NCBI GenBank assembly: GCA_001314545.1
Contig: LIHN01000018.1
Coordinates: 21,084-85,083, forward strand
From: Bacteroidetes bacterium HLUCCA01
GTDB lineage: Bacteria > Bacteroidota > Rhodothermia > Balneolales > HLUCCA01
Length of the DNA: 64,000 nt
Direction of reading: 5' to 3'
The notes below the pieces were generated by a model. The model was not told the origin of the DNA and did no database searches. It was given only the letters and a program-made list of their open reading frames with translations. Shown in pieces: positions 4,044 to 18,736 of this stretch (positions are counted from its first letter, which is position 1; each line of letters starts with the position of its first letter). The translations under genes and the position numbers were made by a program.

Positions 4044-4111
4044 ATTAGGTTTCGTTAACTCAAGGGGCATTTGGCGGGCAAATCGACCCATTTTGGTTAG
4101 GAACTCCTAAT
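4044..4111. promoter_or_regulatory. Pair of RTTAR-N6-YTAAY palindromic operators upstream of the major pilin
   Basis: ATTAG-GTTTCG-TTAAC (4044-4059) and GTTAG-GAACTC-CTAAT (4096-4111), 52 bp apart. Confidence 0.7.
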
Positions 4112-4243
4112 TAAGCTTGACATGGTTTCCAATGCATTGTTGGCGTAAACGCACCGCACACTACCGGGTTCCGGGAATGGAATGGCTACATTCAGACGTA
4201 TGCTGCCCGGTTTAATCCATGAATTAAATGAACACACTGCCTA

Positions 4244-4774
4244 TCAATACGTTACTTCGAGGTTGAGCGTTCCCGTGTAGTTACCGCCGGGCACGTCGCC
4301 CACGGTGAGTTTGCCGAACACGTTGATATTGATGTAGATGTATTCGGGTTCGCCGGTCAGTTGTCCGGGTTCGTTGACGCGAACGGCATTGAATCCTTTA
4401 GAGAGCGGCTGCATGGGTCGACCACCCTCTAATCTCGGTGTCTCGGAAATGTAATAGGCGAAGCCCAGCTCCATGTCGATTCCGCACAGGTCTTCCCCGC
4501 ACATGATGCCCTCGGTTTCCAGCTCCAGCTGGTCGGGCGCATCCAGAAACAGTTGCACATCGCTGACATTCAATACCGCCACCTGAAACCAGCCGCTGCC
4601 GTTTTCATCGAGTCCGACCAGGGCTTCGGAGTTCTGCAACATAGACCCGAAGTCCAGCTCCTGTATGGTCGCGGCACTGACTTCGGAGTCGATGTACACA
4701 CTGAATTGCAGGAACTGGGCTTGTGCCGGCAGGGCCAAAAGCAGTGATGCTATGAGTATCAGGGCTACCCGCAT
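4244..4774 (-). CDS. DUF4402-like minor pilin subunit
   Basis: Signal peptide (AQA|Q); ELDFG motif; CxxxxC pair (CGEDLC); C-terminal GNYTGTLNLEVTY; TGATG overlap with the upstream gene. Confidence 0.68.
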   Translation of the reverse strand: MRVALILIASLLLALPAQAQFLQFSVYIDSEVSAATIQELDFGSMLQNSEALVGLDENGSGWFQVAVLNVSDVQLFLDAPDQLELETEGIMCGEDLCGIDMELGFAYYISETPRLEGGRPMQPLSKGFNAVRVNEPGQLTGEPEYIYININVFGKLTVGDVPGGNYTGTLNLEVTY

Positions 4775-5394
4775 CAGTTGTAGGTTACCTCAATGGTCAG
4801 AGTCGACTCATATGCGCCTGCTTGATTCGCCGGATCACTTGTTATGGTGCCATAGATGAACAAGAAGGTTGACACCGCAGCCGGAAGGTTAACCCCGGCA
4901 ATTTCGGGCGTGGGGGGCGGACCGGGCGGAGCGCCGGCCGTGCGGCGGGTCATGGGATATAGCACAGGATTAATGGTAAAGTCGACCGCCTGGGTGGCAT
5001 CGGGCATGGTACCGCCGGAATTATCAAAAGCGAAACCATAGGTGACCGGAATACGGCAATCGACGGTGGTACAGGCCGCGTCCCCGTCCAGGTAAAGAAA
5101 TCCGTTGTTAATGGTCAGTCCGGCTCCGGTGATTTCGATGATCACATCCAAAAACGGAAGCCCTTCAATTTCGAGGATAGCAGCGTCACCGGAATCGATT
5201 TCAACTTCCTTAGGTGGCTGGCCTGCGATTACGGGTCCAAATAGCAGGTCGGGATTGATAGCGGTTATCGTTGCCGAGGTAGAATAATACTGTCCGAAAT
5301 TAATATCCGGTCCGGAGGGATTGGGCGTAAACTGGGCCTGCATCGCCCAGGGCCATGAAAAAACAATCACCATAAAGAGTATGGTGCTGCGCAT
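4774..5394 (-). CDS. DUF4402-like minor pilin subunit with a proline-rich loop
   Basis: Signal peptide; DLLFG motif; CxxxxC pair (CTTVDC); RRTAGAPPGPPPTP insertion; C-terminal GAYESTLTIEVTYN; TGATG overlap. Confidence 0.68.
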   Translation of the reverse strand: MRSTILFMVIVFSWPWAMQAQFTPNPSGPDINFGQYYSTSATITAINPDLLFGPVIAGQPPKEVEIDSGDAAILEIEGLPFLDVIIEITGAGLTINNGFLYLDGDAACTTVDCRIPVTYGFAFDNSGGTMPDATQAVDFTINPVLYPMTRRTAGAPPGPPPTPEIAGVNLPAAVSTFLFIYGTITSDPANQAGAYESTLTIEVTYN

Positions 5395-5939
5395 CAGATA
5401 AAATCGATTTCGATGGTGAATTCCCCTTCGTACTGCCCGAGGATGTCGCCTTCGAGCTGCATGGTGCCTCCGACCCAGAAGAAATACTCGCCGTCTTCAC
5501 TCATCTGCAGATCGCGGTTTTCCAGGGTAATGGGTTCGGAAAGAAATTGATTTTCGGTCTGGGCGCCGCTCACGTCGTAGAGAAAGACCAGCGGAGAGCC
5601 CCCTCCCACCCGGATCAGCTCGCGCTGTTCCTGAAATGATACCCGGAACAGCATGCCCGGACTTCCGGAAACGCGCAGTACACCGGCGCCCGGATCTTCG
5701 CGGGGGTTTACAGTAATGGATTCCTGCCCGGGACTGACCCGACCCAGATTGATATTCGCACGGGTTTCGATGTCGACCGTAGTCTGGATCTGAGCGCTGA
5801 CCGTGATATTGATAAACTGACCGTTATTCTGCCCGTTTTGCCCGTTTTGTGCCATGGTTACACCGGCGGTGGTCAGCAGGAAGACCACAGCGATCAGCAT
5901 CGCAGCCGGGGAGATAGCAGGAAGTCGGACAGCAGGCAT
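5394..5939 (-). CDS. DUF4402-like minor pilin subunit
   Basis: Signal peptide; alternating strand INITVSAQIQ; NINLG motif; C-terminal GQYEGEFTIEIDFI. Confidence 0.68.
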   Translation of the reverse strand: MPAVRLPAISPAAMLIAVVFLLTTAGVTMAQNGQNGQNNGQFINITVSAQIQTTVDIETRANINLGRVSPGQESITVNPREDPGAGVLRVSGSPGMLFRVSFQEQRELIRVGGGSPLVFLYDVSGAQTENQFLSEPITLENRDLQMSEDGEYFFWVGGTMQLEGDILGQYEGEFTIEIDFI

Positions 5940-5960
5940 AAGATTGTAGGTTTTATCGCT

Positions 5961-6048
5961 GATAATTTAGTCTAATGTAGGATTTTAACCGCGCATGACG
6001 CAGTTAAAATTGATTAATAAAGGCCCCGGGCCGTTAGAAAGTGCTAAC
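5961..6048. promoter_or_regulatory. RTTAR-N6-YTAAY operators upstream of the minor-pilin operon
   Basis: GTTAA-AATTGA-TTAAT (6003-6018), GTTAG-AAAGTG-CTAAC (6033-6048), and one-mismatch GATAA-TTTAGT-CTAAT (5961-5976). Confidence 0.7.
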
Positions 6049-6169
6049 CCGCCGGCCGGATTCATCAAATTTGTGCCTGTAGAGGTAACGCGGCGATGTA
6101 CCCGACCATTGCCCGGGTCGGCCCGAAAGGCGATTGGTCCCGGGGAGGACGTACGGTAAGCCCCGGGTC

Positions 6170-17547: not shown

Positions 17548-17608
17548 TGTGGAGTCCGTTTCAAATAGTTTGTAGAGCAATATAACGTTACATCTTAACC
17601 AATGCATT

Positions 17609-17664
17609 GTTAAATCGGACTAATATTGGTGTTATCGGCCAATATCATATTAATATTACATAAT
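17609..17664. promoter_or_regulatory. RTTAR-N6-YTAAY operators upstream of the second adhesin
   Basis: GTTAA-ATCGGA-CTAAT (17609-17624) and one-mismatch ATTAA-TATTAC-ATAAT (17649-17664). Confidence 0.65.
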
Positions 17665-17778
17665 AATTTACAGCAATAGCGACTATATTTTTATCGATAG
17701 CAACCAGACACCTCAAACCGATGACTCTCAGACAGGGTTAACACAAATCGTTGAACGGGCCGGTTAGATGAGTTCCAT

Positions 17779-17814
17779 AAAAAAACGCCGGACCGCTGTC
17801 AACAGCCCGGCGTT
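17779..17814 (-). terminator. Intrinsic terminator downstream of the 164-aa pilin-like gene
   Basis: Minus strand reads AACGCCGGGCTGTTGACAGCGGTCCGGCG followed by a T-run. Confidence 0.72.
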
Positions 17815-17932
17815 AGAGAATGAACCACTTTAAGTCAAAAATCAGGAGCATCAGCGGTGGTTGGTGGTCAACCGGGCCGCGAATTTGAGATTGCGGAACG
17901 GGGGGGTTTAATGTTCCGCAACCGGGTGAAAT

Positions 17933-18427
17933 TCAGTTGTAAACTGCGCTGACCAGGTACTGACCGGTGTACTGTTGTACAGCCTGCTCATTTTCACTTT
18001 CAAGTCGACCTTCAACCCATACGGAAGCGCGGGCTTGTCCGCCTTGTGCGCCGGCTTTCAGCTGAATCATCTGCTGGCTGCTCAGATAATCATTTCCGGA
18101 AACCAGCGAAGGGGTAAACAAAACATTGCTTCCTTCAGCTTCATCCTGCTCAGTCGCCACAACACTTACGCTGATTTCAGCATCGGTAGTACCGGAAAGA
18201 ACAAATTCAGCATTGCGATCGGTTACGGATACATAGCGTTGATTGTCATAGGTGCCGTCAGAGAAACGAAGGTCGTTTACAGCCTGCAGAGAAGCCGATT
18301 CAACAACTGTTGCACGAATGGTCATGGAAGCTACGGATGATCCCTGGGCAAGGACGTCGGCTGAAAGCGTAGAAAATACTGCTAAAGTGGCCATGGTAAG
18401 TATGATTTGAGTGATTCGGGTTTTCAT
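17933..18427 (-). CDS. DUF4402-like pilin-type secreted protein
   Basis: Signal peptide (VLA|Q); alternating strand VASMTIRATVV; NDLRF motif; C-terminal QYTGQYLVSAVYN; AAGGAG Shine-Dalgarno 6 nt upstream. Confidence 0.68.
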   Translation of the reverse strand: MKTRITQIILTMATLAVFSTLSADVLAQGSSVASMTIRATVVESASLQAVNDLRFSDGTYDNQRYVSVTDRNAEFVLSGTTDAEISVSVVATEQDEAEGSNVLFTPSLVSGNDYLSSQQMIQLKAGAQGGQARASVWVEGRLESENEQAVQQYTGQYLVSAVYN

Positions 18428-18460
18428 AGGAGGCTCCTTTTCGTTAGAGCAGGTTCATTT

Positions 18461-18736
18461 ATTAAAATTCTCTAATGGATTATACGACTAATCCGAACCC
18501 GTGTCAATAGTTTTATTAAGATTCTTTAATACTTATTGGCGTGCCGAAGGCCGCATTATCGACAGAGCCACCTATTCCTTAAGCGCAAAATAAGGCTTTA
18601 TTTGAATCTTTTAGCCGATTATTGAATTTCCTACATCACAATACCCTCGTTTAGGCGGCATAAATATTTCTTAATTATTTTTAATATTAAATCAAAAACA
18701 CCTTGCTGGCAGGAATATTTATTAAGAAAAGCTAAT
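18461..18736. promoter_or_regulatory. Four RTTAR-N6-YTAAY operators
   Basis: ATTAA-AATTCT-CTAAT (18461-18476), ATTAA-GATTCT-TTAAT (18515-18530), one-mismatch CTTAA-TTATTT-TTAAT (18670-18685), ATTAA-GAAAAG-CTAAT (18721-18736). Confidence 0.7.
18479..18507 (-). promoter_or_regulatory. Consensus sigma70 promoter for 17933..18427
   Basis: Minus strand TTGACA (18507-18502), 17-bp spacer, TATAAT (18484-18479). Confidence 0.85.

Follow-up and report, generated by a model that had tools for sequence, protein, structure and literature searches.

Regulation of the pilus/adhesin locus

The intergenic gaps of the pilus/adhesin locus of Bacteroidetes bacterium HLUCCA01 repeatedly carry a 16-bp palindrome, RTTAR-N6-YTAAY, which raises the question of what reads it and which genes it controls. 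The window analysed here is the whole 64-kb stretch of DNA (64,000 nucleotides) from this genome, G000. From the motif, its spacing and its conservation, all observed below, we infer that RTTAR-N6-YTAAY is probably the operator of one sequence-specific regulator binding as a dimer. The genes of the locus and its immediate neighbour, all on the minus strand, are as follows.

3-2453, minus strand: part of the gene in usher position (1,128 aa); no Pfam family
2508-3332, minus strand: chaperone-like gene; weak PapD_N match
3413-3958, minus strand: putative pilin, 181 aa, preceding the chaperone-like gene
4244-5939, minus strand: three small secreted-protein genes in a row (181, 206 and 176 aa), DUF4402 in two
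6170-13192, minus strand: T9SS-sorted adhesin with Invasin_D3, Big_1 and Por_Secre_tail domains
13378-17607, minus strand: T9SS-sorted adhesin, paralogous to 6170-13192
17933-18427, minus strand: DUF4402 small secreted protein (Pfam), 164 aa, putative pilin, monocistronic
19047-22220, minus strand: Y_Y_Y/Reg_prop sensor histidine kinase (Pfam), beside the locus and outside the operator

Chaperone-usher membership is to be read with the PapD_N match at E 0.0085, below the cut-off, and with a protein in usher position that matches no Pfam family. The kinase gene at 19047-22220 is absent at the corresponding position in the relative G031.

A spacing-specific inverted repeat

The window contains 10 exact copies of RTTAR-N6-YTAAY, against 0.53 +/- 0.59 (maximum 2) in 100 dinucleotide-preserving shuffles; an earlier note on this DNA had expected well under one match in ~1.6 kb of intergenic DNA. 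All 10 are confined to 2715-18736, and 18737-64000 contains none. They comprise the nine copies listed in that note, starting at 4044, 4096, 6003, 6033, 13283, 17609, 18461, 18515 and 18721, and one more at 2715, within the chaperone-like coding sequence. Its three one-mismatch copies (5961, 17649 and 18670) are likewise present, together with others at 2497, 18443 and 18660. One-mismatch copies number 19 in the whole window against 14.3 expected, a total so near expectation that only their clustering carries meaning. The sites, to which no strand is assigned, and the one promoter that could be placed with confidence are listed below.

2715-2730: exact site in the chaperone-like coding sequence, ~260 bp ahead of where the usher-like gene starts
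4044-4059: exact site, 86 bp upstream of pilin gene 3413-3958
4096-4111: exact site, 52 bp from site 4044
5961-5976: one-mismatch site, 22 bp ahead of the three-pilin operon's first gene
6003-6018: exact site upstream of pilin operon 5939-4244
6033-6048: exact site, 30 bp from site 6003
13283-13298: exact site, 91 bp ahead of the gene for the 2,340-aa T9SS adhesin
17609-17624: exact site where the 1,409-aa T9SS adhesin gene has its annotated start
17649-17664: one-mismatch site, 40 bp from site 17609
18443-18458: one-mismatch site in the 5' leader
18461-18476: exact site, putative downstream operator, lying over the pilin promoter from about -3 to +13
18479-18507, minus strand: sigma-70-type promoter TTGACA-17-TATAAT, 12/12 consensus positions
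18515-18530: exact site, putative upstream operator, 7 bp upstream of the -35 hexamer, centre about -49.5
18660-18685: two overlapping one-mismatch sites
18721-18736: exact site, the distal one, 294 bp before the pilin start codon

The spacer between the half-sites is strictly defined. Intergenic DNA, as delimited by a crude ORF caller (2,573 crude ORFs genome-wide), amounts to 1,778 bp at 44% GC in the locus and holds 21 RTTAR and 21 YTAAY half-sites. Over spacers of 0-20, inverted pairs occur nine times at spacer 6, once at spacer 18 and at no other spacer, and everted and direct arrangements of the half-sites in the same DNA give no peak. R and Y in the motif are real: around the 11 locus copies of TTA-N8-TAA, the outer flanking position is a purine in 21 of 22 half-sites, and so is the inner one in 21 of 22. 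The extended consensus is about tATTAArAwwTyTTAATa.

The spacings between neighbouring sites given in the earlier note (30, 40, 42, 51, 52 and 54 bp) agree with the site coordinates. Across six pilus loci, paired sites lie 30-31 bp (five times), 51-54 bp (six times) and 24, 61, 73, 77, 84, 93 and 109 bp apart. At 10.5 bp per turn, 15 of these 18 spacings, with orthologous pairs non-independent, deviate by no more than 0.2 turn from a whole number of turns. Because most pairs are thus whole helical turns apart, adjacent dimers probably cooperate and might assemble into tetramers.

Conservation of the sites in relatives

Phylogenetic footprinting, a check proposed in the earlier note, bears out its motif, which is present in every large intergenic gap of the locus. 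Seven of the ten window sites align with sites of a same-genus genome in which the flanks have diverged, and two aligned regions of G002 keep their sites while being 52% and 34% identical overall. Site 6003 is identical in G002 though its region overall is 34% identical; site 6033 is kept with one spacer change, and G026 has a pair of sites 31 bp apart at the place corresponding to this pair. The 16-mer at 4044 and its flanks are identical in G002 amid diverged surroundings, and near-identical 16-mers stand at the corresponding place in G004, G007 and G011. At site 4096 the half-sites are retained in G002 and the spacer is changed, while the G002 copy of site 2715 lies at an equal offset, -617 from the chaperone start. 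G002 also has one site in the gap corresponding to that of site 13283, where the two regions do not align.

The pattern extends well beyond the genus. Homologues of the chaperone-like protein occur in 28 of 41 genomes, and among the 19 non-G000 Balneolales genomes with a chaperone match at E<=1e-42, 17, from families f1, f4 and f5, have an exact site 680-1,290 bp upstream of the chaperone start, ahead of the pilin-chaperone unit. Loci of relatives chosen by homology alone show the same spacing preference, with 22 matches at spacer 6 against 0-6 in seven loci chosen by pilin homology, and 26 against 1-10 in 29 loci chosen by chaperone homology. At the scale of whole genomes, AT-rich relatives show no visible excess of spacer 6 over spacer 7.

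Two sites bracket a pilin promoter

The TTGACA-17-TATAAT promoter of pilin gene 17933-18427 is bracketed by two sites centred at about -49.5 and +5.5. This layout is repeated in G002 and G001, and the promoter itself matches at 10/12 positions in G002, 11/12 in G010 and 12/12 in G006. In G010, G008 and G006 the second site (one mismatch) falls within the promoter spacer and -10 hexamer, and in G031 two sites 30 bp apart enclose a TATAAT. Four RNA runs from a single study gave contigs at 100% identity to the window that cover the gene from about 17900 to 18451-18473; the contigs of two runs end at 18473, those of the other two at 18454 and 18451, respectively. The region 18474-19046 has no RNA contig coverage in these runs. 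The end at 18473 is 1 nt from the start predicted via the -10 hexamer, a proximity that in assembled contigs cannot prove the start. RNA contigs also span 3392 to 3948-3992 at pilin gene 3413-3958, and hence neither pilin gene was silent in that experiment.

CRP activates from positions -41.5 and -61.5. The pilin promoter is likelier to be under repression or dual control than under plain activation, because the centres at -49.5 and +5.5 are off these positions and the downstream site lies over the start. Once occupied, the downstream site should block RNA polymerase and thereby repress, and the upstream site might contribute cooperativity or, as in FleQ-controlled pelA, permit activation. At pilin gene 3413-3958 the sites are upstream of the likely promoter and leave the start uncovered; repression may thus not apply throughout.

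A putative regulon wider than the locus

The 3.37-Mb genome contains 47 exact sites, 35 of them in the ~10% that is intergenic, and spacer 6 stands out genome-wide (47 matches against 10-26 for spacers 2-11) as well as in non-locus intergenic DNA (26 sites against 3-12 at other spacers). The non-locus intergenic rate predicts 0.14 sites in the locus, where nine are observed. Chance would account for about 6 of the 26 intergenic sites outside the locus, which leaves single regulon members uncertain.

Six of the 22 site-bearing non-locus intergenic regions lie directly upstream of histidine-kinase genes, which make up ~2.5% of genes (65 HATPase_c matches among the 2,573 crude ORFs). Two sites precede a third adhesin, the closest paralogue, and the fliD region, a chemoreceptor gene and a receiver gene adjoining flagellin have sites as well. 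Those at the chemoreceptor and next to flagellin are seen again in G026, and a site between fliD and a receiver-AAA+ regulator gene is conserved in G000 and G002. In G031, sites precede at least five curlin-repeat genes, a CsgE-like gene and Wzi, GT4 and Wzc-like genes. The earlier proposal of one dimeric regulator for the pilins and both T9SS adhesins fits this motif pattern, but in extent it falls short, the regulon being far wider than the locus. The same protein would act on the other pilin units, both T9SS adhesins and the third paralogue, on many sensor kinases, the chemoreceptor and flagellar genes in this genome, and on curli and exopolysaccharide genes in relatives. Judged by its gene neighbourhoods, this is a putative regulon of surface-structure and motility genes, with conservation across at least three Balneolales families; its single regulator probably toggles cell-surface and motility genes in little-studied salt-lake bacteria.

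Candidate regulators and alternative explanations

The boxes of PrfA, CRP and FNR were used as a comparison for the motif. The earlier note had matched its 5-6-5 geometry to sites of the Crp/Fnr family; on that reading a dimer of the family would bind the sites as a classical activator. The geometry holds: PMC2610375 gives the CprK box as TTAAT-N4-ATTAA, an inverted repeat read by a helix-turn-helix (HTH) dimer in the identical TTA-N8-TAA frame, and ties CprK Val-192, which corresponds to FNR Glu-209, to a half-site with T instead of G. A 221-aa Crp/Fnr protein on contig C11 has the recognition helix R-V-V-V-S-R with Val at that position, but at E<=1e-10 it is found in 21 of 41 genomes and not in the site-bearing G004, G005, G006, G008, G020, G026, G031 and G036. 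Besides it the genome has a single HTH-bearing Crp/Fnr protein, which is FNR-like (E-T-V-I-R helix, Glu at FNR-209, N-terminal cysteines), with an expected preference for G, so that neither of the two fits, and three small cNMP-binding proteins either lack the HTH or are encoded in an AT-rich island. The sites also differ from the CprK (de)halobox in their operator-like positions, unrelated targets and want of a phyletically fitting Crp/Fnr protein, and their centres from CRP's activator positions; a Crp/Fnr activator is unlikely. An NtrC-type, FleQ-like enhancer-binding protein, repressing from a box at the start site, activating from near -48 and linking flagella with matrix, would suit the mix of flagellar, chemotaxis, adhesin, curli and exopolysaccharide targets, as well as the conserved site between fliD and the receiver-AAA+ regulator gene. 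PMC3424551 places the FleQ boxes of Pseudomonas aeruginosa pelA at -48 and +6 of a sigma-70-type promoter, resembling the centres found here, and the FleQ consensus GTCaNTAAAtTGAC, a string that occurs in PMC6120874 and PMC8125075, shares its six-base separation of half-sites with RTTAR-N6-YTAAY, with GTCA in place of RTTAR. Full-length orthologues of the receiver-AAA+ regulator (>=55% identity) occur in 13 relatives only, co-distributed with flagellin, itself in 15 of 41 genomes. G001, the four g2 genomes, G014, G035 and all f5 genomes gave no such orthologue, and most of these carry the conserved pilin sites. This genome has four enhancer-binding proteins, and since other such paralogues exist in every genome, their presence does not discriminate among them; control of this kind is quite improbable.

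Two further explanations dispense with a dedicated regulator. The sites could be nucleation points of a nucleoid-associated silencer of AT-rich DNA, or plain AT-rich UP-element sequence, in keeping with the lower GC content of locus intergenic DNA (44% against about 52% for the genome) and with an upstream site at the usual UP-element location. Against this, adjacent spacers show no excess over the strict 6, the half-site flanks are purine-specific, half-sites persist in G002 despite a spacer change, and sites also occur downstream of the -10 hexamer and inside promoter spacers, making it very improbable. Tyrosine-recombinase core sites, the alternative raised in the earlier note, would invert promoter segments to give phase variation, and a palindrome with a 6-bp spacer whose pairs flank a promoter has the right form. 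That alternative is rejected, with a likelihood close to nil: promoter orientation is identical in six genomes, none of the genome's nine Phage_integrase matches is on the window's contig C9, the bracketed segment measures only 54 bp between site centres, intergenic sites number at least 35 on 12 contigs and, as weak evidence, the RNA contigs contain no strand-changing joints.

A single dedicated regulator is the explanation that we retain as probable. Three candidates for this role, namely the Crp/Fnr protein, a winged-helix protein and the flagellar enhancer-binding protein, each fail to match the phyletic distribution of the sites. The earlier statement that the window holds no transcription factor gene agrees with a non-exhaustive Pfam scan of 23 window ORFs, and genome-wide searches for GerE, HTH_Crp_2, cNMP_binding, HTH_3, MarR and LytTR gave no match in the window. 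No GerE, Crp, HTH_3, MarR or LytTR gene in the genome has an upstream site that would be a signature of autoregulation; this covers 8-9 GerE genes, scanned to 1.5 kb upstream, and nine HTH_3 genes. G031 has only 3-4 GerE genes, 35-56% identical to the proteins of this genome. It is conceivable, if rather doubtful, that the regulator belongs to a family unrecognised as DNA-binding or outside those considered, and that it is a Balneolales-wide switch whose FleQ-like two-box logic arose independently. If so, a master switch would couple DUF4402 pili, T9SS adhesins, curli, exopolysaccharide, flagella and many sensor kinases.

Comparison with known matrix regulators

FleQ at Pseudomonas aeruginosa pelA offers a close likeness (PMC3424551): two boxes ~54 bp apart on the sigma-70-type promoter of a biofilm-matrix gene, the downstream one overlapping the start and repressing, and targets that combine flagellar with matrix or adhesin genes. 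The system described here differs in half-site sequence and phylum, and the flagellar enhancer-binding protein does not co-occur with the sites.

There are other precedents. SinR represses the matrix operons of Bacillus subtilis from paired operators that it binds cooperatively, and RcsB and CsgD control capsule, curli and flagella in enterobacteria. Their motifs are unlike RTTAR-N6-YTAAY, and the GerE and HTH_3 genes of this genome are without an upstream site; the likeness is that one regulator joins amyloid fibres, exopolysaccharide, adhesins and motility.

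A conserved palindrome in the pilus/adhesin locus

The 16-mer RTTAR-N6-YTAAY, in which the half-sites RTTAR and YTAAY flank a spacer of six bases, is a real and conserved putative operator of a surface-structure and motility regulon across the Balneolales, and the control it exerts is probably repressive or dual. The HLUCCA01 genome comprises 3.37 Mb in 22 contigs at a GC content of about 52%, with the window at 21084-85083 of contig C9, and its closest relatives are metagenome-assembled genomes of Balneolales. Every gene at window 3-22220 lies on the minus strand.

Genes of the pilus/adhesin locus and the adjoining kinase gene (window positions)
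3-2453, minus strand: usher-position gene (part of 1,128 aa), without a Pfam family
2508-3332, minus strand: chaperone-like gene (PapD_N, E 0.0085, below cut-off)
3413-3958, 4244-4774, 4774-5394, 5394-5939 and 17933-18427, minus strand: five genes for small secreted proteins, three of the five with a DUF4402 match
6170-13192 and 13378-17607, minus strand: two paralogous adhesins with a T9SS sorting domain
19047-22220, minus strand: Y_Y_Y/Reg_prop histidine kinase

The window holds 10 exact sites against 0.53 expected, all within 2715-18736, and these include each of the nine copies listed in the earlier note. The three one-mismatch copies listed there also exist, together with three further ones in the same gaps, while across the whole window such matches (19 versus 14.3 expected) show no excess. 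Spacing is the decisive control. The 1,778 bp of intergenic DNA in the locus contains 21 + 21 half-sites, which form nine inverted pairs at spacer 6 and, over all other spacers from 0 to 20, only a single pair, at 18; no spacing peak appears for everted or direct arrangements in the same DNA. The motif is therefore not an effect of composition, and a reading as chance in AT-rich DNA is excluded by these spacing controls. Among the 11 occurrences of TTA-N8-TAA in the locus, each flanking position is a purine in 21/22 half-sites, so the R and Y positions proposed from inspection are also real.

Genome-wide, HLUCCA01 has 47 exact sites, 35 of them in the intergenic tenth of the genome as defined by a crude ORF caller. 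Spacer 6 is again preferred, both in intergenic DNA outside the locus (26 versus 3-12 at other spacers) and in the whole genome (47 versus 10-26). The motif read backwards is a different and commoner motif, uninformative as a genome control, and spacer-7 counts were used instead. As a test of presence, the whole-genome excess at spacer 6 fails in AT-rich genomes that hold the conserved site.

Several features of individual sites were recorded in passing. Four sites (window 18711-18720; C21:15560, C16:130379 and C1:138533 of HLUCCA01) have GGAATAT in common, placed two or three bases before the 16-mer on its 5' side, and the site at C21:15570 forms part of a longer inverted repeat, GGAATATT...AATATTCC. 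Besides an integrase fragment, an AT-rich island at C17:73-77 kb (L042) carries a gene for a Crp-like protein of 190 aa and an HTH_3 gene interrupted by a stop codon; its two exact motif matches, in coding DNA, are probably due to chance.

Within the locus, no convincing small ORF was found in the long gaps and no Rfam family matched window 2400-19200 at E ≤ 0.1. A supposed second pilus cluster at 46-52 kb proved to be BamA, three Skp genes, UppS and RibH. The kinase at 19047-22220 has no receiver, no HTH and no adjacent response regulator; it sits between the pilin gene and accD in HLUCCA01 and in G002, a genome of the same genus, and is missing there in G031 and G026, both of Balneolales family f4. 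A 76-bp tandem repeat (2.4 copies, 90% matches) occupies 18843-19025, between the kinase stop codon and the distal site, and similar short tandem repeats flank an FNR-like gene on contig C7 (L022, about 3040-3210 and 4040-4180). A 54-bp stretch at 17780-17833 is 98% identical to G002, compared with about 70% for the adjoining coding DNA, and coincides with a 14-pair terminator-like hairpin (minus strand, 17814-17784); the pilin RNA contigs end near 17900, already before it.

Conservation among relatives

The syntenic locus of G002 holds nine exact sites, and seven of the ten sites in the window (2715, 4044, 4096, 6003, 6033, 18461 and 18515) have an aligned counterpart there, although the surrounding sequence has diverged to 52% and 34% identity in two aligned gaps. 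At site 4096 the spacer is altered and the half-sites are retained. Phylogenetic footprinting, one of the checks proposed in the earlier note, finds sites kept amid diverged flanks. The G002 gap upstream of the adhesin gene has one site too, yet the regions do not align, and at 27% identity the alignment there is unreliable.

The same spacing recurs in loci retrieved without reference to the motif. In seven loci picked by pilin homology alone (G002, G031, G032, G001, G010, G008 and G006), spacer 6 occurs 22 times versus 0-6 at other spacers, the AT-rich G032 locus being uninformative by itself. Homologues of the chaperone-like protein were found in 28 of the 41 genomes compared, and spacer 6 was found 26 times, versus 1-10 at others, in 29 loci outside HLUCCA01 chosen by chaperone homology. 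Nineteen relatives give a chaperone hit at E ≤ 1e-42, and 17 of these carry an exact site 680-1,290 bp ahead of the chaperone start, upstream of the preceding pilin gene; the two exceptions are G001, where the contig ends short, and G034, which has no site. With HLUCCA01 (G000) itself, 18 genomes bear the site: G000, G002, G004, G005, G006, G007, G008, G011, G014, G015, G020, G021, G026, G027, G031, G032, G036 and G040.

Breadth of the putative regulon

The closest adhesin paralogue in HLUCCA01, on contig C7, has two sites upstream. Outside the locus, 6 of the 22 intergenic regions with sites lie directly upstream of histidine-kinase genes, encoding PAS/GAF kinases, a hybrid two-component protein, a CheB-CheR-PAS kinase and a TPR-HisKA_3 kinase, in a genome with 65 kinase-type ATPase domains among about 2,573 ORFs. 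One further region precedes a chemoreceptor gene, one precedes a receiver gene beside flagellin, and another site separates fliD from a small ORF that is followed by a receiver-AAA+ regulator gene; the fliD-region site is kept in G002, as are three more non-locus sites. Chance alone would account for about 6 of the 26 non-locus sites, which makes any individual member of the regulon uncertain.

In G026, the orthologous pilus/adhesin locus has eight sites, and others precede flagellin, the chemoreceptor orthologue, T9SS-sorted proteins and a TonB-dependent receptor. Besides its pilus locus, G031 has sites before at least five curlin-repeat genes, a CsgE-like gene and the Wzi, GT4 and Wzc-like genes. 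This regulon ties an uncharacterised pilus-like system (DUF4402 proteins with chaperone-like and usher-position genes) to T9SS adhesins, curli, exopolysaccharide and flagella. It thereby places DUF4402 proteins, of which the full-text literature searched held no description, in a functional context for the first time. The result is useful comparative genomics that leaves the current picture unchanged.

Contigs C7 and C12 of G031 (L103-L107) carry at least eight curlin-repeat genes and a LysM-CsgE-like gene with no homologue in HLUCCA01. In HLUCCA01 (C7:891987), G002 (C8:30907) and G026 (C22:175866), a gene for a copper-type P-type ATPase has an exact site just past its 3' end.

Architecture of the pilin promoter

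Upstream of the pilin gene at 17933-18427, the minus strand at 18507-18479 reads TTGACA-17-TATAAT, matching the consensus at 12/12 positions. One site lies 7 bp upstream of the -35 hexamer and the other 2 bp downstream of the -10 hexamer, from which a start at about 18472 is predicted. RNA contigs identical to the window, from four runs of one study, extend from about 17900 up to 18451, 18454 and 18473 (two runs), with none upstream of 18473 before this gene. This limit is a consistent hint at the start rather than a mapping of it, because assembled contigs are no proof of a start and a single study supplied them all. Nor can silence be read from the absence of RNA contigs in other parts of the locus. 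With 18473 as +1, the site centres fall at -49.5 and +5.5.

The order of site, -35, 17 bp, -10 and site is shared by G002 and G001. The second site carries one mismatch in G010, G008 and G006 and falls within the spacer and -10 hexamer, and in G031 TATAAT lies between two sites 30 bp apart. A site that covers the start or core of a near-consensus promoter argues for repression. Regulation may differ at the pilin gene 3413-3958, where both sites lie upstream of 3992, the furthest point that RNA contigs reach. Contig depth within the locus is greatest over this gene for a 181-aa pilin (3392-3992; word depth 69-180 versus 9-19 for 17933-18427), a measure that cannot rank genes.

A pattern search of the locus gaps found no sigma-54 or Bacteroidetes-type promoter elements. 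The canonical promoter upstream of the pilin gene is conserved in several Balneolales genomes (window 18479-18507; L002, L004-L006), which suggests that sigma-70-type promoters are used here rather than the Bacteroidetes-type -33/-7 promoters. Canonical TTGACA/TATAAT promoters are apparently in use in these relatives of Bacteroidota.

Candidate regulators and rival readings

Since the site upstream of the chaperone unit is conserved across genomes, its regulator must exist in Balneolales families f1, f4 and f5, and all three candidates tested fail this phyletic requirement. The Crp/Fnr protein on contig C11, with Val in its recognition helix, has a compatible helix and an incompatible phyletic pattern. 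In CprK, Val-192 replacing FNR Glu-209 goes with T in the half-site, and the CprK box has the same frame as the motif here (PMC2610375). The Crp/Fnr family put forward in the earlier note fits the frame of the site and fails for the protein. A flagellar receiver-AAA+ enhancer-binding protein (C16, 177575-179011) tracks flagellin, present in 15 of 41 genomes, and not the sites. The FleQ boxes at pelA are centred at -48 and +6 of a sigma-70-type promoter, with box 2 repressing and box 1 activating (PMC3424551), an architecture nearly identical to that of the pilin promoter. The likeness to both systems is functional only, as the membership tests of both families fail on the protein. The earlier note had also named tyrosine-recombinase core sites as a less likely alternative; this is excluded, as the window's contig has no integrase gene, promoter orientation is fixed in six genomes and the sites are spread over 12 contigs.

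The third candidate, a 175-aa winged-helix protein of exopolysaccharide loci with sub-threshold Pfam matches only, was found in 19 of 41 genomes, among them none of G014, G020, G015, G021, G027 and G036, which all have the pilin site; sites lie upstream of it in G026 and G031 only. No exact site occurs in the roughly 1.2-1.5 kb upstream of GerE, HTH_Crp_2, cNMP_binding, HTH_3, MarR and LytTR genes of HLUCCA01, and the few one-mismatch sites there were judged to be chance. Small cNMP-binding proteins have no HTH, no regulator gene was found beside the pilus loci of G031 and G032, and GerE orthology across G001, G031 and G032 is ambiguous. The full-text literature searched held no Balneolales transcription factor with a binding motif. 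A precise and conserved putative operator, for example 18440-18540, can serve as bait for its regulator.

G031 and G026 also encode paralogous 71-78-aa CxxC...CC (zinc-ribbon-like) proteins (L108:5431-5646 and 5977-6192; L146:15292-15528). None of these proteins has a homologue in HLUCCA01, and the 71-aa proteins of G031 were rejected as candidates on that ground; each of the G031 genes has a site about 200 bp upstream.
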